Below are positions 31,553 through 64,000 of a stretch of 64,000 nt of DNA, piece after piece. Position 1 is the first letter of the stretch, and every line of letters begins with the position of its first letter. Where the stretch lies: positions 12,710,001 through 12,774,000 of the forward strand of contig CM022665.1 in assembly GCA_012295275.1 (NCBI GenBank), read 5' to 3'. This stretch comes from Chrysomallon squamiferum. Taxonomy: Eukaryota; Animalia; Mollusca. Below the pieces are notes generated by a model. That model made no database searches, had not been told where the DNA came from, and saw only the letters and a program-made list of their open reading frames with translations. A program made the translations under genes and the position numbers.

Positions 31553-31616
<64 letters not shown>

Positions 31617-36555: not shown

Positions 36556-36617
<62 letters not shown>

Positions 36618-37731: not shown

Positions 37732-37763
<32 letters not shown>

Positions 37764-46700: not shown

Positions 46701-47995
46701 ATAACAATAATTTTCACAACCATTATTTTGAAATACGTAATCTTCTGTATTTATAATTGTGCTTACCAGCCCAGCAATTTATCTGAATTTAAATTTTTTA
46801 AAGTATGTTTATTTGTCTTTGATTATCTAGAATGGTGCTGTTCAGTGTGAGAGACTGACTTGTCCTCGACCACAGTGTGAACATCCATACACACCAGAAG
46901 GAAAGTGTTGTCCTGTTTGTGTGGGTAAGTAATAATTTTGTGTTCAACTACAATTAAACAGCCAGTGTAATGGGTCAACATTATTATAATTAAAATTATT
47001 TAATTGTTGTTGTTTTTTTTTGGTAGGAAATTGCAAATTGCCAAGATTACCTTATAGACTATCTTTACCAATTACAGTTAATTCAGTTGTACACCAAGTG
47101 TAAATCACAACATGTAATTTGCCCATAGAAAGTAACAATCAAAAAGGACATCAATTAATTAATTAACAGTGTGATCAGTCATATCTCTTGATTATTTATC
47201 TTTGCAGCCTGTTTCTATCAAGGAACAATCTATCAAGATGGAGAAGACTTCCAACCAGACACCTGTACATCTTGTCACTGCGTCCATGGCAATGTGAACT
47301 GTGTCACTGTAGACTGTCCTGTAGTAACATGCAGCAATCCTATAACACCTCTTGGAAAGTGTTGTCCTGTATGCAATAGTGGTAAGATATTTATAAACAT
47401 ATATTTTTAATTAATACTAGTTATACAGAGCCTTTGTTGCAAAAGTTGTGGAGCACTGGTTGGAATGATAAACAGCTCAATGTATATCCACCAAGAAGGA
47501 TTGATCTTAAGACCCCCAGTATATGTTGAACAGTTGCTCTACCATTGAATTATAGTTATTAAGGATTAACTGTATAAGTTACTTTACTGGAACTTTATTA
47601 ACTTTTGATACCGAGTAACCAATGATGTTATAATGTACTGATACGTCATCAAATGTAACAAAATATAAATTATATTTTCAGACTGTGATTATGACATGAG
47701 GAAATACGCCCACAACACATACTTCTTCCCCAGCTACAACCCTTGTTTGAACTGTTCCTGTTTCAACTCACTGGTGAGGTGTCACTCTGTCCGCTGTCCC
47801 CCCATTAAGCTCCCTTGTACACATCCTGTCAGAAGACTTGGAGAATGTTGTCCCTCTCACTGTCCAAGTAAGTTATCAACAACATCATCATCATCATCCC
47901 AATGTCATCATTATCAACTTCATCACAGTAACCATCATCATCATCATTCTCATTATCACCATCTTAATCATTACACCCCCCTCATTATCACCATG

Positions 47996-48041
<46 letters not shown>

Positions 48042-51000
48042 AAAATTGTTTGTTTTTCATATCACTATTTATTTATTTATTTATTTATTATTGGTATTAA
48101 CATGACTAGTAGAATTAGCAATAATGGTGATGGCAGTACTAGTAGAAGTAAATTGTGTGAAAAGCATATACTACAAGATTTTACAAGTAATTGTATACTG
48201 TTGTTTTCATTTTTGTTGTTTTGTCTGAACACTATTTATCACAAGTTTAATTGCTAAAAGAAACAAATATATTTGATTTTACATATTTTTCGTTAATTAA
48301 TCAAATTTTATATAAACTAACAGAACCCACTTAACATTTATTTACATTCAGCAGTACTTTATTATTTAAAAACATACATTTACATTCTTTTATTGATAAA
48401 GAATTTCACATTTTTAATAATTTGCTGTTATTGTTTTTATTACAGAATGTACTCACAATGGTGTTGAGTATGACGATGGTGAGACATGGTCACCACGTGG
48501 TAGTAGTTGTCAGGTGTGTGAGTGTCATGATGGCCTTGTTACTTGTCGTACACGACAGACATGTTCACTTGAATGTACACATGGAGTAGTGAGACGCGGA
48601 GACTGCTGTTCTCCATGTACAGGTAAAAAATATAATATTTACTTATTAAAAATATTAATGTGAGATTAATTGTGTTTGTACGAGATTATTTATTGTTGTT
48701 GTTTGTTTATTTATTATTTTTTGTTGTTAATTATTATTATTTCTATACTATTACTACTACTACTACTACTATTGCTCTTTTTATTATTTTATTTATTTAT
48801 TTTTTTTTGGTTTTATCATTATCTAATTTTTAAAACTAAATTTAATATAAATGATGTTACTGTAATGCAAAAATAATTAGGTGAAACATTAAAAACATTT
48901 ACAAGAGATGTTTTACAAAATAATTTTCAAAACATAATGGGATTTTCTTAAGATCATATATTGAACCTTTTTGAATCATCACATTTTGTACAGTAATAAT
49001 GTATTGGTATTTACTCCATATTTAATACTATACAGATTATTTTTAACTTTTCAAAATCATTCATGTAACTACGACATTTACTTCATCTTCAGATTGCCTT
49101 TACAACAGTCGTATCATTGGTGATGGTAAAAGTTTCATACGGGCTGGTACACCATGTCAACAGTGCCGTTGTCTTCATGGCAACATTGAGTGTCACATAG
49201 TGGAACACTGTCCCAGACTGCCATGTACTGTAACTGAGACTTTGCCAGATCATTGCTGTCCTCAATGTAGAGGTTTGTTTATAAATAAAAGATGTATAGT
49301 AAGACATATATATCTATGTATACATTAATATACATACACCAAATGTATAAAACTGGCACACACAAATGCACACACCTACACATATTAACACACACACACA
49401 CACACACACACAGATACACATATATACAAACAAAAAGAAAACTGATGCAGACACATATTTAAATCTTTATTTTTGGTTTTTATTTTTGGATGGTGGGTAG
49501 GTGGGGTGTTTTATCGATCACAGGATTATTTCGTCTAAATATGACCACAGTACCATTTCCCATTCCAGGCAGTGCCCCCACAGCAGGTTTATCAATGCAG
49601 TGGTATATGTTTTCCTGTTTATGGGAAGTGCATGTTGAATATCTCTAATCAAAAATGAATAAGCTATCACCCATCATTTCTCATAATCTGCAAGGTCATC
49701 AGAAAGAATTATGATGCCATATAATATTACAAATGTGTTAAGAGCTTTGTTATATGAAACGTTTCTTCCATTAATACAGGCTGTGATTACAAAGGTCGTC
49801 ACTACCAACATGGAGAAGCTGTATCTAGAGACAGGTGTTCCAGGTGTGTTTGTAAAGAAGGTGAGAGAAATACATACCTGTACTATACCTACAGAAATAC
49901 ATATTTTTCATTGCTGTCACATTTAAAATGCAGTTGCTAAACACTGGTTACCAATATATATTTTGTCTTTGCCCAGACAATCCAGTCTTAAATTTTTGTC
50001 AAGCAACCCTAAATTGAAAATCTGAAAAATATTATTTCTAAATATTTTTCATTTATTATTATTTTTATGTAATGAAAACTATTTTATGTTGATGATAATG
50101 CTATATTGCTGAACAAAAACATATTTTAAAATCCTTGACCCTGATGAATGTTTCCAAACATGGTCTGCATAAAAATAATAGTCTTCATTAATTAGACAAT
50201 TTTATTATTATTATTTTTCTTTATGTAATTTATTTCATTAATAATTAATAATTTTCTTTTTCGTTAAAGGCCAGATTTCTTGTGAACAGGTCAATTGTCC
50301 AAAATTGCGCTGTACTAATCCAGTTCCTGTAGAGGGTCAGTGCTGTCCAGTGTGTACTAGTTGTGATTACTATGGCCGGACTTATGATGATGGTCAACAG
50401 TTTGGGTCAGAGAGAGATCCTTGTCAAATCTGTGTCTGTCAGGTAAAAAACAAAATTTCTTTTTACTCTTTACAAAACAAAAATAAAATAGTGAAGAAAA
50501 GAACCCATGTTGATTTTCTTTTTTAATTTAAGCATTACATATTTTCTTCTCAAAATTATACATAAATATTGGTGAAAATGTGACAATTGAAAATTGATCT
50601 TTCCAGTTAATGTTTTTCTTTTAATTTCGTGTAATATTTTTAAAACAAATTTTCATGATAATATTTTTCTTTCCACCTTCATCATACAGCCTGTTTAAAT
50701 TTAATCATAAAATAAAATATTTTATACATACATATATGTATGTTTTTTTTTTTTTTTTTGACATATATACCTGTATTTTGAATATATACAAATATATATA
50801 TAAAAAAAATATATCTTTAGAAGCATTTGTTTACAGAAGGGGCAGGTAACTTGCCATAGCAGAGAACAGAATTGTCCTCCAACTCCATGTACACACCCTG
50901 ACCGTGTTCGTGGTCAGTGCTGTCTCCGATGTGACAACTGTCTGTATGAAAGAAGACGATTAAGAAATGGACAACAGTTTTCACCTGACAACGATCCATG

Positions 51001-54000
51001 TCACATATGTACCTGCAAGGTGTGTTTTATCTATAATAATTCCATTAACTGACATTAATCATTCACAAAAAAAAAAAAAAAAGAATTTCAAAATACCAAA
51101 AATGATAACTTATAAAATAGAGACACTACTTACGGTATAATAAGAGATATGCATGTAATGTGTGAAAAGATTAAATTTTTCTCTGTGTTGAAATATGTTT
51201 CAGGACGGATCTGTGAAATGTGGAAGGAAGGAATGTCCGGAGGTGAACTGTCTGAACCCTGTGGTTCCTCCAGGAAGGTGCTGTCCAGTCTGCAGTTCCT
51301 CTTGTCAGATGGATGGACAAGAGTATCAGGATGGGGAGAGGTTTCCTGATATGAAGGATGACTGCTCTATATGTACTTGTAACGTGGGTGTTATATTTCA
51401 CTGTCTGATTATCTCTGTCACTTCTTCTCTATAATATGTGTCTGTCTATTTTTTTGTTTCTTGCTCTTTGACTCTGTCTCTCTTTACCTCTCTTATCCAT
51501 TCATCCATCCATCAACAGTTAATAAGTCTGTCATATTTCATCCTTTGTTTCATCCTTCTTTCATCCTTTTTATAACTTATTTATTATTTATTTTTCAGGA
51601 TGGAGACATTAGCTGTCAGATGAAGCCCTGCCCCACATTATTGTGTTCCCACCCAGCCAAACTGCCAGGTGACTGCTGCCCTAACTGTGACTTCTGTCTG
51701 CTGGACAGGAGAATTTTCAGGAACATGCAGAGATTCATCCACCCAGATGACGTGTGCCAGGAGTGTGTGTGCAATGTAAATGAATATAATAAAAATAATA
51801 ATAGTAGCAATAATAATAATAATAATTGTAATAATAATAATAATGACAACAATAATAATATAGTAATAAAAATAAGAAAGTCAGAATGATATAGTAATAA
51901 TATTAAGAATTATAATAATAGTTGATATGATGATTATAATAAAATAATAGTGATATAGTAAAAAATATTTATTAATAATAATAATAATAATAATTTTTTT
52001 TTTTTTTGTGTAAATAAAATCTACAAGTAGTTGTCATAATATTACTCGTAAGACAAAAACAGTTTAAAATTAAAAATTTATAAATTATAAATTACATTCT
52101 TGTCATCAGTTTTTAATGAAATAACAAATTAAGAACATTGCTCTAAATTATATAACAGTATCACTTATTAATTAAATATTTATAAAAATTAAAAATACTT
52201 ACATGTTTATATTCAGAGGGGCTCCATAGTGTGCACAAAAGTAAACTGCCCAGCCTTACCCTGCAGCCAGCCAATGCCTATGCCTGGATCATGCTGTCCA
52301 GTGTGTCCAAAGCGCTGTACATATGGTGGTCTGTCATATGAAGATGGACAGACATTTAAAAGCCCACGTGACAAGTGTGAGGAGTGCCTTTGTTTGCAAG
52401 GCCGGGTCCAGTGCAAGAAAATGAAGTGTCCAGTTTCTACTTGTACAAATCCTGTAGAAAGAAACTGCTGTCAGATTTGTGAAGGTGAGACAAATTGTAA
52501 ACCTAACAGGATTTTTTCAAATTGTCATGTTTATTAACTATTATACACTGGTGATAGAGCAAAATTTCAAGATTATATCATAGGCCAAAACCAGTATATA
52601 AATTTTTTTTTTTTTCCCTTCAGACTGCTTCTACAAAAACCAGGTATGGAAAAATGGAATGAAGTTTCAGGATCCTCAAGATTCATGTACCAAATGTAGA
52701 TGTCAAAATGGAAATGTCTGGTGTGAAAAGGTGAACTGTCCACAGGTTTTCTGTCAGAACCCTGTCAGAGAGGGGTGCTGCCCTGTATGCAACAACTGTG
52801 AATATGAGGGCAGGCAGTACAACAATGGTCAAACCTTTTCAGTTTCAAATGGATGCAGAGTATGTACATGCAATGAAGGCACTGTGGAATGCAGGAGTTC
52901 CCTGTGTGCAGCTGTTTCATGCAAGCATCCTGTTCAAGGGCAGTGCTGTAAGGAATGTAATGACTGTCTTTATTTCAAAAGACGTTATGCTAACCATCAA
53001 AGATTCACCAATCCAAGAAACAGATGCCAGGAATGTGTCTGTGATGATGGAACAGTGAGGTGTTCTATGAAACTGTGTCCATCTGTTACTTGTAAGAACC
53101 CCAGACAAGGAGAATGTTGTCCTGAATGTACTGACTGTCAGTACAAAGGCAGGACTATAAGAAATGGACTGAGAATCCCTCATGAGACTGATCCTTGTAA
53201 AGAATGCATCTGTCGAGGAGGTAATGTGGAATGTTTCAAACGACAGTGTCTTAATGCAATATGTCGCAACCCTGTTAAGAGGAGATGTTGTCAGGAGTGT
53301 TCTGACTGCATGTACAATGGCAGAGAGTACAAGAACAGAGAACGGTTCTCTGATCCTACAGACAAGTGTAAAGTGTGTCAGTGTGTCGATGGTAATGTAG
53401 AATGTTCTGCCAAGACTTGTCCTCAAGTCCGATGTTCCAATCCAGTTCAAGGAGCATGCTGTCTGGAATGTTCTAAGTGCATGTACACAAATACTGTCTA
53501 CACAGATGGACAAGATTTCCCTCATGAATCAGACCCTTGTCAAACATGTTCCTGTCACAATGGAAATGTCATCTGCAAGAAGCTCAGCTGTCCAAACATC
53601 ATATGTTCTCACCCAGTTCAAGGTCGTTGCTGTCCTGAATGTGGAGGTGACTGTTTCTTTGAGAGGAGGTTGTATAAGAATGGGGAGAAGTTTCAGAAGG
53701 ATTGTAAAGTGTGTACTTGTGTGGACGGCAGTATGAGGTGTTACCCAAAGTACTGTCCAAAGGTTACATGTTCCAATCCCGTCATCAAAGATTGCTGTCC
53801 TGTTTGTGATGACTGTATGTTTGAAGACAGACATTTTAAGAATGGACAGACCTTTCCTGATCTAAAAGATCCATGTAGTGAATGTTTCTGCAGGGTATTT
53901 TGTTTATTTTACTAAAAAAAAAAAAAAAAAAAATTAATATTGATTTTAATATTTTCTTTTTCTTTTTCAATTAATATGTGAAATTACTTCTCAACTGTAT

Positions 54001-55240
54001 TGATAATATTAGCTTTTTTAAATTAATATTTTTAAGTCATCTTTTTTACTTATGTTAAAAGTGTATAATAATACAGTGTAATAATAATGATAACAATAAT
54101 ATGAACAATAATTTTAATAATAAATTGAATTTAAAATAAAGTTATTATCTGTATTTAACTAATATCTTAATGATTTATTTTCTCAGAACGGCACTTTCCA
54201 GTGTAGAAAGAAGCCATGTCCTGAAGCTATCTGTCAGAACCCTGCTCCTGGTCAATGCTGTCTGGAGTGTCGTAACTGTGCTCTTCATGACAGAATCCTG
54301 CCACATGGTTACAGGTTTCCTGGAGAAAGTGATCCATGTCAGACATGTGTTTGTGAGGTAAACTTAATTTTAGTCTGTGAGATAAATTTTAAAATAAACT
54401 TTCTTGTCAGTGTGCTGTGAACACTTTGCCAATTTCAGAGATTGCTTAACAATTCTAAAGCATATTTATTGAAAGTATTTTATTTTCAGAATTTTGATTA
54501 GTGATTAACACTAAAACATAAAAGAGGGAATCTTCTACAGCAGTATGAAATAAGAAGTTTTAATTGTATATAAGTTTGTTTTTGTTAATTTATCTTTCCT
54601 GTTCACAATGGTGAAAATATATTTTTTTCAAATTTATTTTTTTAATGAAAATATTAAAAAATAATTTTAATAGATTTGTATACATATTTTCTGTATTATT
54701 TCCTTTTATTTATTAATATGAAACTTTCTTATAAAACCAACTTGAAATGAAACAATTTCAATAATTTTAAATAACATACTGACATTTCAAATAAGAAGTT
54801 TCTACTAAAGTAGAAATTTTCATCTGTATAAATTTATGACTCATTCATTTATATTAAATTATAAAATGGTACTGAATAATGTATTCCAAAATAAATCACA
54901 TTCAGCTGTATTTAGCTATAATATCACTTATCGTATACTCTTCATCAAGAAAAAGTTAAAGATTCTGTCACATTATTTTACTTTATATTCTCTCATACGG
55001 CATTATATTGTACCATATAATTAAAAAAATAATAAATAATTATATTTCATAATAATAATTATCCAGGCTGGAACAATAAGCTGTGAACGCAAGATCTGTG
55101 AGCCACCAGCCTGTGACAACCCAGTGGTTGATAGTTGCGGTTGTTCAGCATGTCAACAGTGTCAGTTTGAAGGCAGACGATACCAGAATGGTGAAGAATT
55201 TAGACATCCTACAAGCAACTGTACACAGTGTCGGTGCAGG
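18159..55240 (+). CDS. Giant secreted mosaic protein (kielin/chordin- or NELL-like scaffold with two EGF-Kunitz-tyrosinase-fold-GYD modules); 3' end beyond window
   Basis: 37 GT-AG exons splice in one continuous frame with consistent phases; signal peptide, TSPN/LamG, coiled coil, vWC, EGF, Kunitz, tyrosinase (FLPWHR, GGxM, DPxF), G(Y/F)D repeats, at least 23 C-terminal vWC repeats; no stop codon before the donor at 55241. Confidence 0.88.
20520..20690 (-). mobile_element. Degenerate SINE-like fragment (possibly V-SINE type)
   Basis: Reverse complement atggtatgtgccttcctgtctatgggaaggtacat resembles 49599-49640 and 15200-15250; family assignment from memory only. Confidence 0.45.
21100..21600. 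repeat. Degenerate tandem repeat, about 4 copies of 110-140 bp
   Basis: Recurring tatgttatctgtatttatatc...gcatgttaaat. Confidence 0.6.
26030..26830. repeat. Cryptic trinucleotide low-complexity tract (ACT/ATT/GCT/ACC)
   Basis: 3-periodic degenerate repeats producing spurious Leu/Val/Tyr-rich ORFs in several frames. Confidence 0.85.
26832..27056. repeat. Three ~75-bp tandem copies
   Basis: ttaatacaaagtt...agaacag..tacaa/gttacaact...tcttggtt at 26832, 26909, 26982. Confidence 0.85.
27217..28010. repeat. Diverged ~200-bp direct duplication flanking an (AAT)n tract
   Basis: tggcacatttgg.atgcattttgacaa and cacttagcttggtttat occur at ~27270/27355 and ~27873/27922. Confidence 0.75.
29168..29670 (+). 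CDS. Mosaic gene exon: TSPN/laminin-G-like domain
   Basis: ELDLLK...DYEWNSLVVRINRTSLNVQVDCS...IWLG...FE. Confidence 0.85.
29999..30068 (+). CDS. Mosaic gene exon: end of TSPN/LamG
   Basis: GILFEAKLYPVYIKDSGCDNLPQ. Confidence 0.75.
30318..30436 (+). CDS. Mosaic gene exon: coiled coil
   Basis: ERLRQMEQRVTQLALMVDMLKTQ. Confidence 0.8.
31193..31324 (+). CDS. Mosaic gene exon: coiled coil end + vWC
   Basis: [44 protein letters not shown]. Confidence 0.88.
31621..31669 (+). CDS. Mosaic gene exon
   Basis: DGFPVCKIRMDVPSCQ, cag/gtgagt. Confidence 0.8.
32197..32421 (+). CDS. Mosaic gene exon: EGF 1 + Kunitz 1 N-part
   Basis: PCITSPCSPQGQC...CICQPPFGGPTC; CIWPVDPGNC...RFYYD...CQEFNYSG. Confidence 0.9.
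33035..33177 (+). CDS. Mosaic gene exon: Kunitz 1 C-part + Cys domain
   Basis: GCGGNINNYETEGQCVDTSMQGACCYR. Confidence 0.88.
33953..34170 (+). CDS. Mosaic gene exon: Cys domain + vWC-like
   Basis: CIVGTKQYNIGESLRLGCENCTCKNGGKLSC. Confidence 0.87.
34594..35498 (+). CDS. Mosaic gene exon: tyrosinase-fold domain 1 + start of GYD repeats
   Basis: VRKELRDMT...HVHGGVFYLPWHR...LPYFDFT...HVYIGGDM...DPVFFAIHSYIDMLY. Confidence 0.92.
35881..36066 (+). CDS. Mosaic gene exon: G(Y/F)D repeats
   Basis: GYNRDGFDESGYDRYGYDRYGFDRAGYNRQGFD. Confidence 0.88.
36559..36615. repeat. (GT)n microsatellite
   Basis: Perfect GT run. Confidence 0.95.
36688..36927 (+). CDS. Mosaic gene exon
   Basis: GLDPNGFDRYGFTIRGYDANYCNYFFKGP...RICAP. 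Confidence 0.85.
36970..37260. repeat. Degenerate ~37-bp minisatellite
   Basis: Recurring taaatattcagaattaaagggaaaattt-like unit. Confidence 0.65.
37850..38095 (+). CDS. Mosaic gene exon: Cys-rich domain
   Basis: CQENLCVQESCPAYPDAICRMSFCTEC. Confidence 0.85.
38947..39105 (+). CDS. Mosaic gene exon: EGF 2 + Kunitz 2 start
   Basis: DFCSPNPCHHGGTC...CVCPPGYDGHLC...VCSLP. Confidence 0.9.
39758..39965 (+). CDS. Mosaic gene exon: Kunitz 2
   Basis: GNCDGQEKRWYFNYKSQKCEEFIYTGCYGNSNNFKSVNSCQAKC. Confidence 0.9.
40221..40330 (+). CDS. Mosaic gene exon: GYD repeats
   Basis: YGFNIEGYDRFG...YDDQGFDWQ. Confidence 0.85.
40581..40746 (+). CDS. Mosaic gene exon: GYD repeats
   Basis: GYNLQGYDDEGYDRLGYDKDGYDREGFN. 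Confidence 0.87.
41227..43044 (+). CDS. Mosaic gene exon: vWC-like + tyrosinase-fold domain 2 + GYD repeats
   Basis: 1.8-kb exon; RKEVREMT...FLPWHR...IPYYDWT...WVGGHM...SPYDPLF; long G(Y/F)D tract. Confidence 0.92.
43679..43773 (+). CDS. Mosaic gene exon: Cys-rich
   Basis: LCIVTHAYDVCPIDMPEVLCTENLCKGRSCP. Confidence 0.82.
44490..44582 (+). CDS. Mosaic gene exon: Cys-rich
   Basis: DHPNAVCRTSSCGSCHFEWY. Confidence 0.82.
44703..44782 (+). CDS. Mosaic gene exon: vWC
   Basis: CYDNRVQFRNEGETWKNEKCETCICQ. Confidence 0.85.
45208..45301 (+). CDS. Mosaic gene exon: vWC
   Basis: NGLVECKLIKCKPVYCLHPIRPPRECCVNC. Confidence 0.85.
46112..46359 (+). CDS. Mosaic gene exon: vWC
   Basis: GCTYQGKLY...CCPVC...CQKCICI. 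Confidence 0.9.
46831..46924 (+). CDS. Mosaic gene exon: vWC
   Basis: [30 protein letters not shown]. Confidence 0.88.
47208..47381 (+). CDS. Mosaic gene exon: vWC
   Basis: CFYQGTIYQDGEDFQPDTCTSCHC...GKCCPVC. Confidence 0.88.
47428..47552 (-). mobile_element. Degenerate SINE-like fragment (5' part)
   Basis: Reverse complement ttccaaccagtgctccacaac resembles ttccaggcagtgccccca of the 49513 copy. Confidence 0.4.
47682..47867 (+). CDS. Mosaic gene exon: vWC
   Basis: CDYDMRKY...PCLNCSC...GECCPSHCP. Confidence 0.88.
48446..48622 (+). CDS. Mosaic gene exon: vWC
   Basis: CTHNGVEYDDGETW...GDCCSPC. Confidence 0.88.
49093..49272 (+). CDS. Mosaic gene exon: vWC
   Basis: CLYNSRIIGDG...PCQQCRC...DHCCPQC. 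Confidence 0.88.
49513..49660 (+). mobile_element. Degenerate SINE-like fragment
   Basis: ttccaggcagtgcccc...gtggtatatgttttcctgtttatgggaagtgcat shared with other dispersed fragments in the window. Confidence 0.45.
49780..49860 (+). CDS. Mosaic gene exon: vWC
   Basis: CDYKGRHYQHGEAVSRDRCSRCVCKE. Confidence 0.85.
50270..50442 (+). CDS. Mosaic gene exon: vWC
   Basis: GQCCPVCTSCDYYGRTYDDGQQF. Confidence 0.88.
50837..51019 (+). CDS. Mosaic gene exon: vWC
   Basis: KGQVTC...GQCCLRCDNCLYE...PCHICTCK. Confidence 0.87.
51204..51383 (+). CDS. Mosaic gene exon: vWC
   Basis: DGSVKC...GRCCPVC...CSICTCN. Confidence 0.88.
51599..51775 (+). CDS. Mosaic gene exon: vWC
   Basis: DGDISC...GDCCPNC...CQECVCN. 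Confidence 0.88.
52217..52484 (+). CDS. Mosaic gene exon: vWC
   Basis: GSCCPVCPKRCTYGG...NCCQICE. Confidence 0.9.
52624..53894 (+). CDS. Mosaic gene exon: about 7.5 tandem vWC repeats
   Basis: Open 1.27-kb exon with repeated C..C.C..G...C....C....C..P....CC..C pattern. Confidence 0.93.
54187..54357 (+). CDS. Mosaic gene exon: vWC
   Basis: NGTFQCRKKPC...GQCCLEC...PCQTCVCE. Confidence 0.88.
55067..55240 (+). CDS. Mosaic gene exon: vWC (last visible exon)
   Basis: AGTISCERKIC...CQFEGRRYQNGEEF...CTQCRCR then gtaagt. Confidence 0.88.
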
Positions 55241-55993
55241 GTAAGTGTGAATATTTTTTAAAGTTTTATTAGATGCTGTTCTTTTCCAAAGTAAGATAAT
55301 AAAATAAAATATTTTGCTTTTTACAGTAATTTTTGAACAATGAAATAATCTCTAAGCCCCAAGAACTTTGTAATTTATTAGTCTTTATCATTGCTTTTTA
55401 AATTATTATTTTTGTTTTACCTTCTCATATATTTCATAATATTTCATAATATTTTCAAGCAGTCTTGTTAGGTCATAATTTACTACTAACATATTAAAAA
55501 AAAAAACTTGGAATTAACAAAAAGAATTCAGGCCATTTGTATTATAAAATTATGAGCCTGCTTAGTGCCTTTAGTACAGGTCTTATTTCTATGATTAATG
55601 TGAATAGATGTAACAGAAAATTCTGATTCAAAGAAAGCAGTTTAAGCCTTCCATCTCTATGAAATTATGGCTGTTTTATTAAAGATTATATATGTTCATT
55701 CATGGTATATTACAAAGTAAAAATGAAAGAAAACAATTTAAAAATGTATATACATAATTTATTACAAGAATATGTTTATTACACTAAATTATTATTCTTC
55801 ACCATTGTTTTTTATGACAATTAAAAATTTGATGGCATTAAGCAGAGCTATATTGCCATATTATCCTGAACACAAGTTATTTTTAAAGACATAATAATTA
55901 GTGTTATTCATGGCTGCTGTGTCTGTTCATTCATTCATGTTAAATATAATACTTGTACTGAAAATGTGCATGATGTTTCATTTCATCCACAAG

Positions 55994-56050
55994 CCCTGCT
56001 ACACCTCCATCCAGTAATATTTATCAAACCAGTACAGAAATGTAACAAGG
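55994..56050 (-). ncRNA. pre-miRNA, miR-184-like with seed variant (UGGAUGGAGGUGUAGCAGGG)
   Basis: Near-complete stem on minus strand via G:U pairs; CAUC at +17. Confidence 0.7.
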
Positions 56051-56418
56051 AGATATTGATGATATTCAGCTTCTTCAGAATGCAATATATAATTAAATAT
56101 TTCACACCACCCATGTTTATACCTTTGATTTCAGCTTCATTAGGTAACAAGATGTAGCTTATACATTTTTTTAAATATTCCAAAGAATAAAGACATGATT
56201 AAATCAAGTTATTATATCTTTCTGTGGGTAAAAGGAATTGTTATTATTGAAATCTGGTATAAAAAGAATTATTTCAGAATTTGTTTAGAAGAAAAAAAAA
56301 TGTATCACTGAAATTTGATGTAAAAAGATTACTTACATTAAATGGTTAACAAATATATATATTATCATTGTATTAGCTATTACAGGTTTTTGGTGATTTT
56401 AGTACATGAATTCATCAT

Positions 56419-56487
56419 ATTAGATTCTGTATTAGTCTGTGATAGCTTTTAACAACAGGCAATCACAAGACTGATACAGTGTCTAAT
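56419..56487 (-). ncRNA. mir-2: pre-miRNA, miR-2 family seed (UAUCACAGACUAAUACAGAA)
   Basis: Long stem, 3p arm starts UAUCACAG. Confidence 0.8.
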
Positions 56488-56679
56488 AATGAAGATGGCC
56501 TCTTACACCATAAACTGAACTATTTCTGTGATAGGATGTGTTATAAATCTAATACTATTATTTGTTAACATTAAGTTTGACATTATATTTTATTAAAAAA
56601 GATTATAAAATTATGAAATAAATAAATTTGAATTATTTCAGTTATTTCACTTATATCAAGTTGTTTCTGATCCCACTTA

Positions 56680-56736
56680 CCCCAGCATCTGAAAGTGCTA
56701 GTTTAATCATTTCATACCAGCACAAACAAATACCAG
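56680..56736 (-). ncRNA. pre-miRNA, UAGCACUU family (UAGCACUUUCAGAUGCUGGGG)
   Basis: 18/21 pairs on minus strand; CAAC at +16. Confidence 0.8.
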
Positions 56737-56973
56737 AACAAGAAGAAATTATTTCAAAACTTCATTAGTACATGGCCAACATGGTTATCTACACATACAA
56801 ATATCAAAATTAAAACTAACACTAAAAATAATAATAATAATAATAATAAAGAAATTATAATTGAAAGAATAAACAAAAAGTAACTAAAATTAAAATTTAT
56901 AAACAAGGGAAAATTTTTATAATTTCAAAAATTGCTGTCAACATCTGGTAATTGTTGTTTGAACACCATCACT

Positions 56974-57036
56974 TTCCCTTACTATACTTCCGTCCAGTTT
57001 TCAAAATCAGACCAGATGAAAATATAGCAAAGGGAA
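56974..57036 (-). ncRNA. mir-184: pre-miRNA, miR-184-like (UGGACGGAAGUAUAGUAAGGG)
   Basis: Seed GGACGGA and 3' UAAGGG as in miR-184; CAAC at +18. Confidence 0.82.
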
Positions 57037-57308
57037 GGAATGCATTTTAGAGATTTCTCATATCCTCGTAAGTATTCTGAAAGATTATAATCATAAAAAC
57101 ATTTAGTATATTTGTTTAATATTGTTACAAATATTTATTCAGCATAATAATTATAAAATATTAATAGGAAAGGTTTTTGCTTAATGATTATAGTAGAAAT
57201 TGAATACATATCAAATCAAATTATTATTCTTTCTATGGGTAACAACCAAACCAACATCATAATGACTTTGTAATGGATTACTAATGTAGTTTCTCAAATA
57301 CCACAAAC

Positions 57309-57361
57309 CCAAGCTATATTTCCGTCCAGTTTTGTCACAACAACACAGAAATAGAGCTTGG
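57309..57361 (-). ncRNA. mir-184: pre-miRNA, miR-184-like (UGGACGGAAAUAUAGCUUGGG)
   Basis: Stem ccaagct...agcttgg; CUAC at +18. Confidence 0.75.
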
Positions 57362-57469
57362 ATATGTAATGCTTATTTTCTTCACAATACTATAAACTAC
57401 TCTCTACATGAACATTTGTTTGTTCTTTCATAAGTAGATGGATGGGTATGTGATAATAAAATCCTCTCA

Positions 57470-57525
57470 TCTCACATTTAACTGTGATAGCTACTATCAA
57501 AGGCCATCACAAATCAAATGCAAGG
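57470..57525 (-). ncRNA. mir-2: pre-miRNA, miR-2 family seed (UAUCACAGUUAAAUGUGAGA)
   Basis: ctgtgatagc...gccatcacaa hairpin. Confidence 0.72.
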
Positions 57526-57724
57526 CTAGAAGAAGTCATTTTCATGTACAGGATTGATCTTCCTCTTAGTCAGGATGCCATTAGCCTCGTTGGATGGTTT
57601 CAACATCATAGACAGGAAGGTATGGGCCCCATAGTCAGGATGGAAGATAGACCTGTCCAAAGCCAGAGTGCATCAGTCTCAATTACATAATAATATAGCT
57701 CTAAGAAAACAATAGCTCATCTTA

Positions 57725-57782
57725 TTCTAGCATCAGAAAGTGCTACTTCTTTATCAACAGCAGCACATAGCTAATACTAGAA
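57725..57782 (-). ncRNA. pre-miRNA, UAGCACUU family (UAGCACUUUCUGAUGCUAGAA)
   Basis: ttctagcatc...atactagaa stem. Confidence 0.75.
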
Positions 57783-58003
57783 CAGTCAGAGTTCAAATAG
57801 CTGTTACAATAATATAATTGGTGGTGGCAGAGTTTGATACAACAGTAGCTTTTAATAGCTGCTGGTCAGAGCAATGGAAATCAGACATATCAATGGTCAG
57901 ATACACTGTTAGTCAATGTTTTACCTAAAATAATGAATGGTGGGCATTTCAGTGACTTATGGTCAGGTTATCATTCTTAACATTAAGGAAATATCTCATT
58001 TAG

Positions 58004-58057
58004 CCTAGCATCAGAAAGTGCTAGTTGTTGTCTATACCAGCACATAAATGATACTAG
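58004..58057 (-). ncRNA. pre-miRNA, UAGCACUU family (UAGCACUUUCUGAUGCUAGG)
   Basis: ctagcatca...tgatactag stem. Confidence 0.78.
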
Positions 58058-58232
58058 TCCAAAGAAGCAAATTTGTATGTTTTTTTTTTTAACAATAGAT
58101 GCTTTTTGCAAAGTTCTTTTTCTTCATGGCCATGTGAAATTAAAATATTACTAAAAGTTTTATAAGAGTCTAATTTTGACATCAGTGTGTTAATTAAAAT
58201 ATCATTCTTGTAGAATATATGAATTTACCATC

Positions 58233-58288
58233 CCAAATTTTACTTCCGTCCAGTACTGTATCATAGACCACACAGAAATAAGATTTGG
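58233..58288 (-). ncRNA. mir-184: pre-miRNA, miR-184-like (UGGACGGAAGUAAAAUUUGGG)
   Basis: ccaaattt...agatttgg stem; CUAC at +18. Confidence 0.75.
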
Positions 58289-58368
58289 CAAAAAAAACCA
58301 TATAATTGTTTTGCAGGCTGAAGTGATCAGTTGATTTAGTCAGTGATAGATGATAAACAGACAGTTAA

Positions 58369-58430
58369 ATGTATCACATTCATCTGTGATAACAGCTGAT
58401 ATAGGCAATCAGAAATTAGATGTAATACAT
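58369..58430 (-). ncRNA. mir-2: pre-miRNA, miR-2 family seed (UAUCACAGAUGAAUGUGAUAC)
   Basis: atgtatcacat...atgtaatacat stem; CAUC at +18. Confidence 0.75.
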
Positions 58431-58664
58431 GTAATTGAAATATATACACTCAAATTAAAAGGCACAATTGTTAAGCAAGTATAATGATCATAATATTAAT
58501 TATGAATTTGAAAAAAAAAAAATATATAACAATAATAAATATTTTAGTATATATACACATTTACTGTATGTATAACAATGTTAAATATTATCTTTATCCA
58601 GAGTTGTTAGAACAATGTCTTACCTGATTATTTACAGTCACAGAAGAAATTTCAAATTGTCAGC

Positions 58665-58720
58665 TGTCATATACAACTGTGATAGCAGTTATTAAAAGCA
58701 ATCACAAGTCAAATGTGACA
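58665..58720 (-). ncRNA. mir-2: pre-miRNA, miR-2 family seed (UAUCACAGUUGUAUAUGACAG)
   Basis: tgtcatat...atgtgaca stem; CUUC at +17. Confidence 0.78.
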
Positions 58721-58861
58721 TTAGACAATCAGTCTAGGTTAATTGTCAAATCTGAAAAGGATATTCAGAAATATGACTGAACAGGGATATTTTCCCCCTT
58801 AACCATTTAACCATCTTCGTTTTCTGCAACAACATTTTTTGGTGTCTCCATGGAGATTTGA

Positions 58862-58915
58862 AGTCACATTCATCTGTGATAGCTTTTAGTGAAGGCAATC
58901 ACAAAATAAATGTGC
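58862..58915 (-). ncRNA. mir-2: pre-miRNA, miR-2 family seed (UAUCACAGAUGAAUGUGACUU)
   Basis: cacatt...aatgtg stem; CACC at +16. Confidence 0.75.
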
Positions 58916-59181
58916 TGTCATAAAACCATTTCTTTTTTTTTTCCATCAGGTTTAAATTTCATCTATATAAGAAGGTAAAACATATAAATAATTTATAAAT
59001 TGTGATCAGTTTCTTCAACTTTTTATCATTTGTTTTCAGATCTCAAGCATTTACTAGTGCTAATTGATGTATGTATACAAAAATCCATCATTCCAAAGCC
59101 ATGACATCCAAAATAACAGTATGCAGACACATCATTAAATATTGTTTGTTATTTTACTTTCCCTGAAGAAGAATATTTTTA

Positions 59182-59249
59182 ACTGTCCCAAGCATCAACT
59201 AGTGCTAGTTTATATGAGCACACTAGAACTAGGAAATACTTGGGACAGT
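59182..59249 (-). ncRNA. pre-miRNA, UAGCACUA variant (UAGCACUAGUUGAUGCUUGGG)
   Basis: Perfect basal stem actgtcccaag/cttgggacagt. Confidence 0.8.
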
Positions 59250-59341
59250 ACAGTAAAGAGAACAAACATTTGTAATTCAGGGGATATCAACAGTTAGTGT
59301 ATGGAATTCAAGTATTTTTGATGTTCGGATTTTCTCTTTTA

Positions 59342-59400
59342 CCCCAGCATCAGAAAGTGCTAGTGCTTGTTCAACCAACTAGCACAAAATGAGGCTAAGA
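59342..59400 (-). ncRNA. pre-miRNA, UAGCACUU family (UAGCACUUUCUGAUGCUGGGG)
   Basis: gtgctagt...actagcac stem; CAUC at +18. Confidence 0.78.
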
Positions 59401-59625
59401 CAATTGAGTTGTATATATATCCATGTCATGGCTGGATTCATTAACCCACTTTGAAAATTGATTTAGTGATGATAGAAACACTTGCTGCATTAAATGTTCT
59501 TGAATAATGTAATATTTCTATAATTAATAGAGAAATATTGAAATTACAGCTGTTTGTTATAAAAAAACTGAATATAGATATATTTGCATATTAGGTTGAG
59601 CTACATGATGTTCGCATATATCCTC

Positions 59626-59688
59626 TGGTATCGCATTCAACTGTGATAGCTGCAGGTATCATGCAATCACAAGCAGAATGTGATGTCA
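59626..59688 (-). ncRNA. mir-2: pre-miRNA, miR-2 family seed (UAUCACAGUUGAAUGCGAUACC)
   Basis: atcgcattc...gaatgtgat stem; CAUC at +17. Confidence 0.78.
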
Positions 59689-59847
59689 AATGATAAAAAT
59701 TAATTTACATTTAACAGTCATGCAGATTAATCTAGAATTTTCCTAAAAATTATGGTTGCAATTAACATTAAAATCATATATTAAAAGAGTCTTTACCCTT
59801 TTGAAGAGGGCAGCATTTTCATGGTGTTGTATTTTGATAAAGTGCAC

Positions 59848-60994
59848 TATCCAAGTCTTCTGAATGTTTCTTTGCTAATAAATTATTTATCTGTTGTCAC
59901 ATTCATCTGTGATAGCTTCAGTTCTTGCAATCACAAAAGAATATGGCACCAGAAATAATTATTTTGTATCTCTGTTATCCAAGTCTTCTGAATGTTTCTT
60001 TGCTAATAAATTATTTATCTGTTGTCACATTCATCTGTGATAGCTTCAGTTCTTGCAATCACAAAAAAATATGGCACCAGAAATAATTATTTCGTATCTC
60101 TGTTATCCAAGTCTTCTGAATGTTTCTTTGCTAATAAATTATTTATCTGTTGTCACATTCATCTGTGATAGCTTCAGTTCTTGCAATCACACAAAAGAAT
60201 ATGGCACCAGAAATAATTATTTCATATCTCTGATATCCAAGTCTTCTGAATGTTTCTTTGCTAATAAATTATTTATCTGTTGTCACATTCATCTGTGATA
60301 GCTTCAGTTCTTGCAATCACAAAAGAATATATGGCACCAGAAATAATTATTTCATATCTCTGATATCCAAGTCTTCTGAATGTTTCTTTGCTAATAAATT
60401 ATTTATCTGTTGTCACATTCATCTGTGATAGCTTCAGTTCTTGCAATCACAAAAGAATATGGCACCAGAAATAATTATTTCATATCTCTGATATCCAAGT
60501 CTTCTGAATGTTTCTTTGCTAATAAATTATTTATCTGTTGTCACATTCATCTGTGATAGCTTCAGTTCTTGCAATCACAAAAGAATATGGCACCAGAAAT
60601 AATTATTTTGTATCTCTGTTATCCAAGTCTTCTGAATGTTTCTTTGCTAATAAATTATTTATCTGTTGTCACATTCATCTGTGATAGCTTCAGTTCTTGC
60701 AATCACAAAAGAATATGGCACCAGAAATAATTATTTTGTATCTGTTATCCAAGTCTTCTGAATGTTTCTTTGCTAATAAATTATTTATCTGTTGTCACAT
60801 TCATCTGTGATAGCTTCAGTTCTTGCAGTCACAAAAGAATATGGCATCAGAAATAATTATTTTGTATCTGTTATCCAAGTCTTCTGAATGTTTCTTTGCT
60901 AATAAATTATTTATCTGTTGTCACATTCATCTGTGATAGCTTCAGTTCTTGCAGTCACAAAAGAATATGGCATCAGAAATAATTATTTTGTATC
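59848..60994 (-). repeat. Tandem array of 9 x 126-130 bp units, each carrying one miR-2-seed hairpin (UAUCACAGAUGAAUGUGACAAC)
   Basis: Unit marker ccaagtc at 59851, 59979, 60107, 60237, 60367, 60495, 60623, 60749, 60875; near-identical copies. Confidence 0.95.
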
Positions 60995-61072
60995 GTCTTG
61001 TGAAATGTTAATTATTTATAGTGCTGTGGATCTCAAATCTTATGGCTGCAGAATTATTTCTTTTTTCTTTCT

Positions 61073-61127
61073 CAAGCATCTACTAGTGCTAGTATTAATA
61101 TTTTCACAAGCACTAAACAGGCACTTG
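61073..61127 (-). ncRNA. pre-miRNA, UAGCACUA variant (UAGCACUAGUAGAUGCUUGAG)
   Basis: caagcat...gcacttg stem. Confidence 0.7.
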
Positions 61128-61308
61128 GACAAGCCAAAGAATAGTAAATTTCTGAATGTGTGGTGATGTCATTAACACATCTCTTCTAAAGAATAATAAA
61201 TAGATGAAATAATAAATAATGTCCACAAGAATCTGTGTAATATTGGCTCTTTTTAACAGATTCAGCAGATTTCACATGAAAGGTATTTTGACAACACATG
61301 ACACATAG

Positions 61309-61365
61309 CCTAGCATCCAAAAGTGCTAATGGTTTAAAATGACACCAGCATTTTTTGATACCAGG
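61309..61365 (-). ncRNA. pre-miRNA, UAGCACUU family (UAGCACUUUUGGAUGCUAGG)
   Basis: cctagcatc...gataccagg stem. Confidence 0.72.
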
Positions 61366-61670
61366 TCAAGTGAAATATTAATATCTTTTCTTTTTCATCA
61401 TGGGGATCATTTATTTCTTATTATGGTTTTGGATCTTTGTAAACTCCAAATTATTCTATATTCAGTAAAGAATGTGGAATCTTTGTCTTGCAAACTGTAC
61501 TTGATTTGGGGTTGGTGATATTATATATAGATCTTATCTCACATTTAACTGTGATAGCATAAGAAGCCATGATTTAAGAAAATATTATGTTTTCTAGCAA
61601 GACATCTTTTTATGAGTGTGAGTATTTTATCCTAGAAAATGTAACAGGGATTACTTTCAATTAAAACATT

Positions 61671-61729
61671 TCAAAGCATCAACTAGTGCTAGTGATTTAG
61701 AACAAACAAGCACATAGCAGATTCTTTGA
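61671..61729 (-). ncRNA. pre-miRNA, UAGCACUA variant (UAGCACUAGUUGAUGCUUUGA)
   Basis: tcaaagcatc...gattctttga stem. Confidence 0.75.
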
Positions 61730-61840
61730 GATATAATAAAATATTTCTCAGTCAGTCTGCCAGGATGAAGCCATGGATTTATGTTATTATACAAACTGTC
61801 TGATAATATCTTGTTCTTAGAAACTCTGCTATGATAAGGT

Positions 61841-61922
61841 TGTCATCATTTTCCCAAGCATCAGAAAGTGCTAGTTGTAAATATCTCACCAGCGCATTGT
61901 AATGCTTGGTAAAATGATAACA
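61841..61922 (-). ncRNA. pre-miRNA, UAGCACUU family (UAGCACUUUCUGAUGCUUGGG)
   Basis: ccaagcat...atgcttgg stem with extended basal pairing. Confidence 0.8.
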
Positions 61923-62057
61923 TTCATTGTCTCTTTTATGTTACTGAGAGTAAAATTAAATTTGAAAATACTGATCTGTATTTTTAAATTAATTTAATAA
62001 TACAGTCTTGCTCAATAAATCTCAGAATTAAAGTAAATATGAAGAAGTCTGTGCATT

Positions 62058-62119
62058 ATGTTGCTACATTCATCTGTGATAGCATATAAATTAAAGCAAT
62101 CACAAGGCAAATATAACAT
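62058..62119 (-). ncRNA. mir-2: pre-miRNA, miR-2 family seed (UAUCACAGAUGAAUGUAGCAAC)
   Basis: ctgtgatagc...gcaatcacaa hairpin; CUUC at +16. Confidence 0.72.
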
Positions 62120-62187
62120 CAAAATACATGTAATACTATTAATTTCTCTAAAAAAAATCATATATCTTCTTGTACATTTTTGTTGTG

Positions 62188-62254
62188 CTTTCCCTAGTAT
62201 CAGAAAGTGCTAGGTATAAAATCATTTCCAAGCACAAAGTGATGCCAGAGAAAG
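62188..62254 (-). ncRNA. pre-miRNA, UAGCACUU family (UAGCACUUUCUGAUACUAGGG)
   Basis: ctttc...gaaag bounded stem. Confidence 0.75.
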
Positions 62255-62322
62255 TAGAACATTTGTTAAGCTGAAATATATAATTGTAATAACTATATTC
62301 AAGATGTAAGGAAGGTTGCTTA

Positions 62323-62379
62323 CCCTAGCATCAGTAAGTGCTAAATATAATTTAGTTTCAGCAAAAACGGATACCAGAG
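62323..62379 (-). ncRNA. pre-miRNA, UAGCACUU family (UAGCACUUACUGAUGCUAGGG)
   Basis: Weaker stem; CAUC at +16. Confidence 0.62.
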
Positions 62380-62583
62380 AAAGAAAACTCAGTATCTTTA
62401 ATGAATCCTAGACTTGAGATCTGAAAAAAAAAAAAAAAATCCACAAATGTTTCTAAATTAATAAATAAAAATAGGTGATCCTTTCAGTGTAACATTATCA
62501 CTTACATTTTGATACTTTGTAAATTATATACCAGTATTCATATTTTAACCAAACATTCTCTGTAAAGTTTGAACAGAAACATA

Positions 62584-62641
62584 CCCTTACTATATTTCCG
62601 TCCAGTTCTTTAACACAGACAGGATGGGTATATAGTAAAGG
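62584..62641 (-). ncRNA. mir-184: pre-miRNA, miR-184-like (UGGACGGAAAUAUAGUAAGGG)
   Basis: ttactatat...atatagtaa stem. Confidence 0.8.
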
Positions 62642-62803
62642 AATATAAATGTGTTGGGATGAATCATTTATAACTGTTTCAGGTAATTCTGTACTGCCTA
62701 CTTATACCTATTATAATTACTGAAAATATTACTGGGTAATATTCTTGAACTTACCTGAGTGCCTGGATATATATTTGTTTCTATGCTTATTGTACTCCAG
62801 ACC

Positions 62804-62860
62804 TTGCATTGATCTGTGATTGCTTGAGATTAACATTATGCAATCACAAGAAAAATACAA
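62804..62860 (-). ncRNA. mir-2: pre-miRNA, miR-2 family seed (AAUCACAGAUCAAUGCAAGG)
   Basis: tgtgattgc...gcaatcaca stem; 5' nt A instead of U. Confidence 0.68.
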
Positions 62861-63104
62861 TGTTAGAATTCAAATTAATCAAACTAGTTCAAAAAGTTGC
62901 ATATCATGACCAGCACCTCCTTTCTGTTTTTAAATAATCCTTTAAGATTTTAAGCAAATTAATATCTTGTCTCTATGAATGCCTGAACTAGTGGTAAGAC
63001 ACCTCTTCCCTTTCTAAGTAATCAGTTGATTTTCACTGATTTTGCTCATTCATATTTTTATTAGTCTTTAAAATATCTTTATTGAAAAGTCGTTAGAAGG
63101 TTTT

Positions 63105-63177
63105 TCATCTCGTGTCACATATAGCTGTGATAACTTTATATAAATTGTCATCACAAGCTAGATGTGAGCAGAGATGA
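63105..63177 (-). ncRNA. mir-2: pre-miRNA, miR-2/13-like (UAUCACAGCUAUAUGUGACACG)
   Basis: Long stem tcatctc...gagatga; closest copy to canonical miR-2/miR-13. Confidence 0.82.
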
Positions 63178-63243
63178 TAAAAATAAATTAGAACAAGAAT
63201 GTCAGCTATACAAAAATATGGTTAAATAAAGACATATTTGGTA

Positions 63244-63295
63244 TAGCATTAGAAAGTGCTAGCAGCAAAGATAAGCCAGCACATAACTAATGCTA
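63244..63295 (-). ncRNA. pre-miRNA, UAGCACUU family (UAGCACUUUCUAAUGCUAUA)
   Basis: Perfect tagcattag/ctaatgcta stem segment. Confidence 0.77.
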
Positions 63296-63443
63296 GGCAA
63301 AAGAAGCCATTTAAAATTTCATCATGAATTTTTTGTTAATCATAGCCTTTGTCAGTTGCTTGTGAATGTCTTTATTCTTGGAAGAATATACTATTTTATC
63401 ATAAGGTTTAATCATTCTGAATGTAACAAATATGAATGCCAGA

Positions 63444-63513
63444 TATCAGGTATTGCAGGTTTCTGTGATAGCTATTAACATCTGCAGTCACAAGAAAGAT
63501 ACAATGGCTGATA
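63444..63513 (-). ncRNA. mir-2: pre-miRNA, miR-2 family seed (UAUCACAGAAACCUGCAAUACC)
   Basis: tatcag...ctgata bounded stem. Confidence 0.75.
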
Positions 63514-63746
63514 AATGAAATTTTTCATTAATAGTAAGATCCATCGTGTATTTAGGATATACAAGTACCTCTTCATAATACTATCAATATTGTATTTGGT
63601 AAGAACATTTTTAGTTTATTTAGGATAAAGAAGTCCCTACGATAATATTATTTGCATTCTCTTTATTAAGAATTTTCATAGACTACTAGTCCCTACCAAA
63701 ATGATATCAGTAAGTTGATAAATCTGATGAAGACTATAACCCAGTA

Positions 63747-63803
63747 CCCCAGCATCTGAAAGTGCTAGTATCCTAATATAACAAGCACAAACAGATACTG
63801 TGG
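63747..63803 (-). ncRNA. pre-miRNA, UAGCACUU family (UAGCACUUUCAGAUGCUGGGG)
   Basis: Same predicted mature as the 56680 copy; CAUC at +17. Confidence 0.8.
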
Positions 63804-63961
63804 AACAGAGTAATAATTGTGATACCAGTTCCCTTGATTATAGATCTCAAATTCTATTACACTATTTTACAGTGTCTTTGTCTTTATTTGTCTTTGTGGG
63901 TGATATACTGTTTAGTATTAATATCTAGCATACAAATATAGAGTAGTGGTAATTCTTCTCA

Positions 63962-64000
63962 TTCCCAGGATACCACTGTGATACTAACTATATGTGCAGT
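63962..64000 (-). ncRNA. mir-2: Partial pre-miRNA, miR-2 family seed (UAUCACAGUGGUAUCCUGGGAA), cut by window edge
   Basis: ctgtgata + loop + gcagt as in other copies; partner arm outside window. Confidence 0.55.

Follow-up and report, generated by a model that had tools for sequence, protein, structure and literature searches.

A one-strand cluster of probable microRNA hairpins in Chrysomallon squamiferum, placed antisense in an intron and likely including a family also present in oysters

We analysed a 64,000-nt stretch of the genome of the mollusc Chrysomallon squamiferum (contig CM022665.1, positions 12,710,001 to 12,774,000; hereafter the window), the last 8 kb of which carry 41 seed-bearing units on a single strand. 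According to an unbiased hairpin scan combined with a listing of seeds, these are 14 copies of a family with the seeds AGCACUU or AGCACUA (the AGCACU family), 22 sites with the K-box-type seed AUCACAG and five miR-184-like hairpins, and the whole cluster sits antisense in an intron of a kielin/chordin-like gene. Judged by their sequence, the roughly 40 hairpins are likely to be microRNA genes, and the 13 well-folded members of the AGCACU family likely belong to a family shared with oysters. Taken together, we give a probability of about 0.6 to the reading that these microRNA genes form one polycistron of the early embryo, which would repress mRNAs through AGUGCU, K-box and miR-184 sites and likely clear maternal and early zygotic transcripts.

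The pattern TAGCACT[TA] matches the minus strand 14 times between 56.0 and 64.0 kb, spanning positions 56679-63767, compared with a mean of 0.57 and a maximum of 3 in 200 dinucleotide shuffles of that interval; there is no match on its plus strand and none in positions 1-55999. A first-pass annotation of the sequence had listed 13 hairpins here, and each of its positions corresponds to a family member on the minus strand. Its division into ten AGCACUU and three AGCACUA copies (59182, 61073, 61671) is accurate for these 13, but it overlooked a fourth AGCACUA copy (59041-59062), so that the tally over 14 copies is ten and four. Thirteen copies are single hairpins with the common arm on the 3' side (minimum free energy -21.4 to -37.2, z -3.0 to -9.7), and for 12 of them folding is better on the minus than on the plus strand. 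The remaining copy, with an eroded 5p arm, folds poorly (z -1.1) and is probably a pseudogene. The family copies are interleaved with the K-box-seed sites and the miR-184-like hairpins, which had gone unmentioned before. None of the three kinds of seed occurs on the plus strand of the cluster region, and AUCACAG, present at the 22 neighbouring sites, is found in none of the 14 family copies.

Several properties of the hairpins argue for genuine microRNA genes. Two-sided changes affect 10 of 19 consensus pairs, a level reached by none of 500 shuffles and above that of slid controls, in a test that leans favourable as the structure was derived from the same sequences. Estimated precursors measure 57-59 nt with loops of 12-15 nt, close to the metazoan means, which in the part of the source available to us are 60 and 16 (PMC11701709). 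Between 15 and 19 of the 22 mature bases are paired, with at least 16 in 12 of the 13 hairpins. Pairwise identity reaches 0.86 over mature nt 13-18, as against 0.32-0.34 in the loop and 3' flank, in agreement with the mature consensus given on first pass, which is approximately correct; while conservation of nt 1-7 was preset by the search pattern, nt 13-18 and the pairing are independent of it. A CNNC motif is expected 16-18 nt past the 3p arm. It is present there in 15 of 30 non-redundant hairpins versus 1.8 expected (AGCACU family 5/13, K-box 6/12, miR-184-like 4/5), a set that omits eight tandem copies, two K-box sites that lack a complete 3p hairpin and the degenerate AGCACU copy. The CNNC interval was fixed after the offsets of the family were known, and the K-box and miR-184-like groups (10/17) are independent of that choice. 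CNNC is a motif of the Microprocessor, according to the same partly available source (PMC11701709).

That the hairpins are a palindromic repeat or resemble a miniature inverted-repeat transposable element, and are not microRNA genes, appears very improbable. The 128-bp tandem array within the cluster and the lack of reads from C. squamiferum would suit such an element, but conservation is confined to the arms, with loops and flanks at background, and the single strand, the CNNC enrichment and three unrelated seed types speak for microRNA genes. Besides, arms in the window match sequenced oyster small RNAs.

These oyster data are taken from the portions of Xu et al. (2014) that were available to us, and all statements on oyster are limited to them. 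Tables S5 and S7 of that study contain 11 unnamed Crassostrea gigas precursors with AGCACUU or AGCACUA seeds (PMC4138081), hence the family, which the first-pass annotation could not assign to a known one, had been published without a name in 2014. The AGCACUU precursors m0314, m0316 and m0317 are clustered on scaffold370, antisense in an intron of CGI_10025557, a gene for which our literature search returned no paper, and the AGCACUA precursors m0214, m0215, m0338, m0341, m0342, m0345, m0347 and m0348 lie on scaffolds 392 and 1827 (PMC4138081). The authors labelled these microRNAs oyster-specific and of different origins; m0314, m0317, m0214 and m0347 passed their criteria, and the seven other members failed one or had few reads (PMC4138081). 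Six window arms lie within three mismatches of m0317-3p, three of them agreeing at 20/22 nt, and 100 shuffles yielded none. Over all 14 copies the agreement with m0317-3p is 15-20/22 nt, and nt 9-22 alone give z 1.7-5.5. Furthermore, m0316-3p matches two window arms, and the 5p arm of the copy at 56679-56700 resembles m0316 5p as judged by eye; no window arm comes within three mismatches of an m0342/m0345-type arm. The two species therefore have in common the seeds of both classes, 3p arms alike at up to 20/22 nt, similar 5p arms, clustering and one intronic antisense cluster, whereas the 11 oyster copies are spread over three scaffolds with the seed classes apart and are not annotated near miR-2 or miR-184.

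Oyster reads of the homologues begin UAGCAC-, AAGCAC- or GAGCAC- (PMC4138081), which bears out the seed register AGCACUU/AGCACUA proposed on first pass. The assumption of a dominant 3p arm agrees with the oyster AGCACUU class (3p versus 5p reads 3245 vs 421, 2941 vs 334 and 4919 vs 227) but not with the AGCACUA class, in which arm use is mixed and 5p often equal or higher, as for m0214 with 831 5p and 203 3p reads (PMC4138081). For the 3p arms of m0314, m0316 and m0317, egg yielded 1-3 reads and each library between blastula and D-larva 102-1802, while none came from five later-stage and eight organ libraries; m0314-3p peaks at 741 reads per million (RPM) at blastula (PMC4138081). In the same oyster cluster, m0315-3p is about ten times more abundant, its core being GCACCA, and it also has the UGAUGC block of the family (PMC4138081); no counterpart of m0315 was found in the cluster of the window.

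Regarding the proposed embryonic role, a single primary RNA would be transcribed from its own promoter in the early embryo and then be cut by Drosha and Dicer. Since the cluster is antisense to its host, splicing of the host cannot release the hairpins and an own transcript is needed; the cluster extends up to the end of the window, so that its promoter and 5' end are probably located past 64000. Acting through AGUGCU, K-box and miR-184 sites, the three seed types would repress and destabilise their target mRNAs and thereby help to remove maternal and early zygotic transcripts, and repeated local duplication would have increased the dose, with the seeds retained and the 3' halves diversified. 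Processing, 5' register and the confinement of expression to blastula through D-larva are taken entirely from the published oyster reads, and expression and timing of the cluster in C. squamiferum would follow by analogy. It is the oyster timing, together with the analogy to the insect miR-309~6/2944 clusters and fish miR-430, that suggests clearance. The three seeds AGCACU, AUCACAG and GGACGG make this testable, as the sites AGUGCU(A), CUGUGAUA and CCGUCCA can be followed in existing staged transcriptomes of oyster and abalone.

A number of observations weigh against this explanation. Among the five runs listed for the species, four are long-RNA and one is an unlabelled contig set, and no small-RNA data were found. 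RNA contigs across the intron, with read evidence covering 52500-59800, are shallow (depth 2-5 versus 39 for the host mRNA) and their strand is not readable. Depletion of polymorphism in the mature arms is not significant (1/31 events versus 3.0 expected, P 0.19), as assessed on a second haplotype over 55900-59800, among the variants listed and with five adjacent changes taken as one event. In oyster, levels are modest and last to trochophore and D-larva, past a pure maternal-clearance window; the lack of annotated miR-2 or miR-184 neighbours also counts here, with scaffold370 showing only m0314, m0315 and m0317 in the expression table. Finally, 67 oyster mir-184 matches sit on two other scaffolds and were set aside by the authors as unconfirmed (PMC4138081).

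These could also be real embryonic microRNAs that serve larval patterning or timing (trochophore organogenesis, shell field, K-box control of apoptosis) instead of maternal clearance, which we consider unlikely. The raw oyster counts peak at trochophore and persist to D-larva, Xu et al. view young microRNAs as body-plan regulators (PMC4138081), and the effects of the fly miR-309~6 knockout are mild in the part of the source available (PMC4691753). However, the onset is already at blastula, where m0314-3p RPM is highest, the reads are gone after D-larva, and clearance microRNAs typically come as multi-copy polycistrons that change fast (PMC4691753).

As to the two seed classes, AGCACUU and AGCACUA differ only at position 8 and have the 6-mer site AGUGCU in common; the U/A exchange alters only the 7-mer-m8 match. 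As originally predicted, the site AAGUGCU(A) differs from that of miR-29; the difference lies at seed position 7. AAGUGCU also spells the miR-430 seed, so that each hairpin bears this string on the strand of the host pre-mRNA, probably by coincidence. Both classes are present in oyster as well, and the split is thus not local to the window. The window AGCACUA copies agree with oyster m0345-3p at 16-17/22 nt and the AGCACUU copies at 12-16 (at least 8/10 at 14 or fewer), and nt 9 is G in every AGCACUA copy of either species, observations that favour an old split. In a tree of 14 precursors, an AGCACUA clade (UFBoot 84) appears only with nt 8-10 included and dissolves when these are masked; given this loss, the AGCACUA copies may have arisen by convergence. 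A similar U/A variant at position 8 (AAGUGCU/AAGUGCA) is described for cichlid miR-430 in the accessible part of that source (PMC10417697).

Descent of the family as a seed-mutated offshoot of miR-29, as first suggested, now seems somewhat unlikely. The first six nt are the same as in cgi-miR-29-1-3p, and one of 13 members matches Rfam mir-29 below threshold (25.8 bits, E 0.056; gathering 46.7), the best E-value in the cluster apart from miR-184; moreover, oyster m0315 joins its GCACCA core to the 3' block of the family. Against this, the other 12 members have no mir-29 match at E 10, similarity beyond nt 6 is absent (mean z -0.19 over 14 members), the miR-29 seed AGCACCA occurs in 0/14 copies, no window arm is within three mismatches of the oyster miR-29 arm, and oyster miR-29 has a separate locus expressed at all stages. 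In comparison with MIR-29 (RF00074; cgi-miR-29-1), the family thus resembles it in the 3p mature arm, the UAGCAC start and, in most members, UGA at 11-13, and differs in positions 7-8, an unrelated 3' half, scores far under Rfam gathering and another expression pattern.

A tentative alternative is that the family arose from one of the K-box (miR-2 type) hairpins in its own cluster, via U-to-G at position 3 and the insertion of one base behind position 6. Five of the first six nt are in common and the two kinds of hairpin are physically interleaved. The covariance model of the family gives 12 K-box hairpins (seven of them tandem) 21-28 bits, where miR-184-like hairpins reach no more than 13.2 and background no more than 16.3, and oyster m0345-3p aligns with cgi-miR-2d past nt 6 (z 3.4, P 0.0065). 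Yet the comparison with miR-2d was picked post hoc, such similarity past nt 6 is seen in none of the 14 window arms nor in m0317 (mean z -0.04), and outside the seed the family is not more similar to K-box than to miR-184 hairpins (P 0.11 for nt 9-22, 0.41 for the 5p arm). With MIR-2/K-box (cgi-miR-2d; PMC4941716, available in part), the family therefore shares most of its start, its cluster neighbours and one oyster AGCACUA member that aligns over its full length with two gaps, whereas seed and target site are different and window members are dissimilar past nt 6. From these sequence comparisons, the K-box origin fits about as well as the miR-29 origin and neither is demonstrated; the family may also have been born de novo inside the cluster.

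Concerning the name of the family, none was found in the main texts or readable supplements of the literature, MirGeneDB sequences lying outside the scope of the search. Six 17-nt arm strings had no match in the main texts of papers, and the four supplement files searched of an octopus study (PMC9699675) contain no family seed string. The name MIR-12096 was considered and dropped, as no paper was found for it and it is not in the supplements searched. The chances are about even that the oyster members already are in MirGeneDB under an existing name (Mgi-NOVEL, or paralogues of MIR-2, MIR-29 or another old family) and that only the gastropod copies are new. MirGeneDB 3.0 has seven oyster-only NOVEL families, MirGeneDB 2.0 reached Cgi-Novel-22, with several barely expressed in infected-oyster samples, and the four precursors that passed the Xu criteria were open to curators. 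In contrast, the shared mollusc families under the node names searched are MIR-2722, MIR-1984, MIR-12588 and MIR-1988 only, the oyster expression table has only Mir-29-P1 and -P2, and calling the family oyster-only would remain incorrect should the snail copies be homologues. This question concerns naming and is compatible with a clearance polycistron.

Early-embryo polycistrons are already a known kind and the oyster members were sequenced in 2014; new at this locus is a mixed, diverged cluster that unites both seed classes with K-box and miR-184 seeds. The supposedly oyster-specific microRNAs become a family that a bivalve and a likely gastropod have apparently both conserved; if reads confirm it, the family would qualify for a MirGeneDB name on the basis of at least two species. 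In addition, the cluster may offer a case of a new seed arising within a cluster. A maternal-mRNA-clearing microRNA of molluscs was not found described in the literature searched. The most specific form of our explanation, a mollusc maternal-clearance polycistron whose AGCACU family predates the snail-bivalve split, was born from a K-box hairpin, had both U8 and A8 already and acts with amplified K-box and miR-184 seeds, is unlikely to be right in every part. If true, the oyster miR-184 expansion would be explained as part of an embryonic module, and K-box-based clearance would be common to insects and molluscs and not insect-only.

In the rest of the cluster (Table 1), the 128-bp array is a very recent amplification of dose within an old cluster. 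Among the AUCACAG sites outside the array, 56533 is without a 3p-type hairpin, 61556 folds poorly and 63983 is cut off at the window end. The final hairpin is miR-184-like with the altered seed GGAUGGA, and the second haplotype differs at 56009, inside its seed region. Rfam has no match at gathering score across the 64 kb; under relaxed settings, two hairpins match mir-184 (34.8 bits, E 1.3e-4, and 28.7 bits, E 0.0056; gathering 54.1) and two K-box hairpins weakly match mir-308. Of two pattern scans of metagenomes, the first gave 0 matches and the second 17 single matches in contigs of 32-57% GC, with no cluster; we took these 17 as chance, as most are without a microRNA-like hairpin and none is clustered.

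The host gene has an architecture that is odd for a regulator of BMP: a LamG-like start, EGF, two Kunitz and two tyrosinase domains, GYD-rich repeats and a long VWC array. Proteins of this build are also present in bivalves, Nucella, sharks and some fishes, and Salpingoeca has the tyrosinase-Kunitz parts. An RNA contig of 9,269 nt links the exons 52622-53893, 54186-54355 and 55065-55241, followed by 2,769 nt that are not in 52500-59800, and tblastn with three mollusc homologues found no exon past 55252 in the window. The largest tyrosinase exon clusters with molluscs (100/100) and, moderately, with Nucella (88/91), the only gastropod in the tree. Elsewhere in the window, positions 1343-4303 (minus strand) hold exons of another gene with membrane-protein-like open reading frames, which may resemble TMEM181, and a cryptic low-complexity tract of the (ACT/ATT) type with a 73-bp repeat lies at 26034-27154, upstream of the host gene.

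Table 1. Positions in the window of the candidate microRNA cluster, its units and the host gene (oyster comparisons refer to the available data of Xu et al.).
Feature	Position	Strand	Details
Host gene exons	29374..55241	+	kielin/chordin-like protein; tyrosinase, Kunitz, VWC domains
Last host exon in window	55065-55241	+	cluster in following intron, antisense
Candidate polycistronic microRNA cluster	55981..64000	-	reaches window edge
AGCACUU hairpin	63735..63814	-	mature 63746-63767
AGCACUU hairpin	63229..63309	-	mature 63240-63261
AGCACUU hairpin	62311..62390	-	mature 62322-62343; 20/22 nt vs oyster m0317-3p
AGCACUU hairpin	62180..62261	-	mature 62191-62212; sole weak Rfam mir-29 match
AGCACUU hairpin	61841..61921	-	mature 61852-61873; 20/22 nt vs oyster m0317-3p
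AGCACUA hairpin	61659..61740	-	mature 61670-61691
AGCACUU hairpin	61296..61377	-	mature 61307-61328
AGCACUA hairpin	61059..61140	-	mature 61070-61091
AGCACUU hairpin	59330..59411	-	mature 59341-59362; 20/22 nt vs oyster m0317-3p
AGCACUA hairpin	59175..59255	-	mature 59186-59207
Degenerate AGCACUA copy (14th)	59030..59110	-	mature 59041-59062; eroded 5p arm
AGCACUU hairpin	57991..58070	-	mature 58002-58023
AGCACUU hairpin	57713..57793	-	mature 57724-57745
AGCACUU hairpin	56668..56749	-	mature 56679-56700; both arms like oyster m0316, 3p 19/22
Tandem array, nine 128-bp units	59848..60994	-	97% identical; one AUCACAG hairpin per unit, identical 3p arm
AUCACAG sites outside tandem array (13)	56413..63983	-	mostly hairpin 3p arms
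AUCACAG 5' ends outside array, first seven	56444, 56533, 57489, 58391, 58684, 58881, 59648	-	
AUCACAG 5' ends outside array, last six	61556, 62081, 62821, 63132, 63470, 63983	-	
miR-184-like hairpins (5)	55981..62652	-	3p 5' ends 62604, 58252, 57328, 56996 (GGACGGA), 56013 (GGAUGGA)

Compared with known early-embryonic systems, of which the sources were available in part, the cluster has its closest parallels in insects and fish. Insect clusters that clear maternal mRNA in the early embryo share the K-box seed AUCACA (PMC4691753). Like miR-309~6 of Drosophila and mir-279e~2944c of Tribolium, the cluster described here is a fast-changing polycistron of mixed families with AUCACA seeds on 3p arms, and their early zygotic timing is likewise proposed here on the model of oyster (PMC4691753). 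The other seeds are different (CACUGG, UAAAGC and GACUAG in insects versus AGCACU and GGACGG), and we do not claim homology of the clusters (PMC4691753). Membership in miR-430/427/302 was rejected, as the only AAGUGCU strings are on the plus strand, where they form the 3' end of what would be a 5p arm, and the supported strand is the minus strand; miR-430 is also stated to be absent from molluscs (PMC10417697). The cluster nevertheless resembles the fish miR-430 array in its many copies, the proposed early timing and the U/A variant at seed position 8, whereas the miR-430 seed AAGUGCU is the exact reverse complement of AGCACUU and the target sets therefore differ (PMC10417697).

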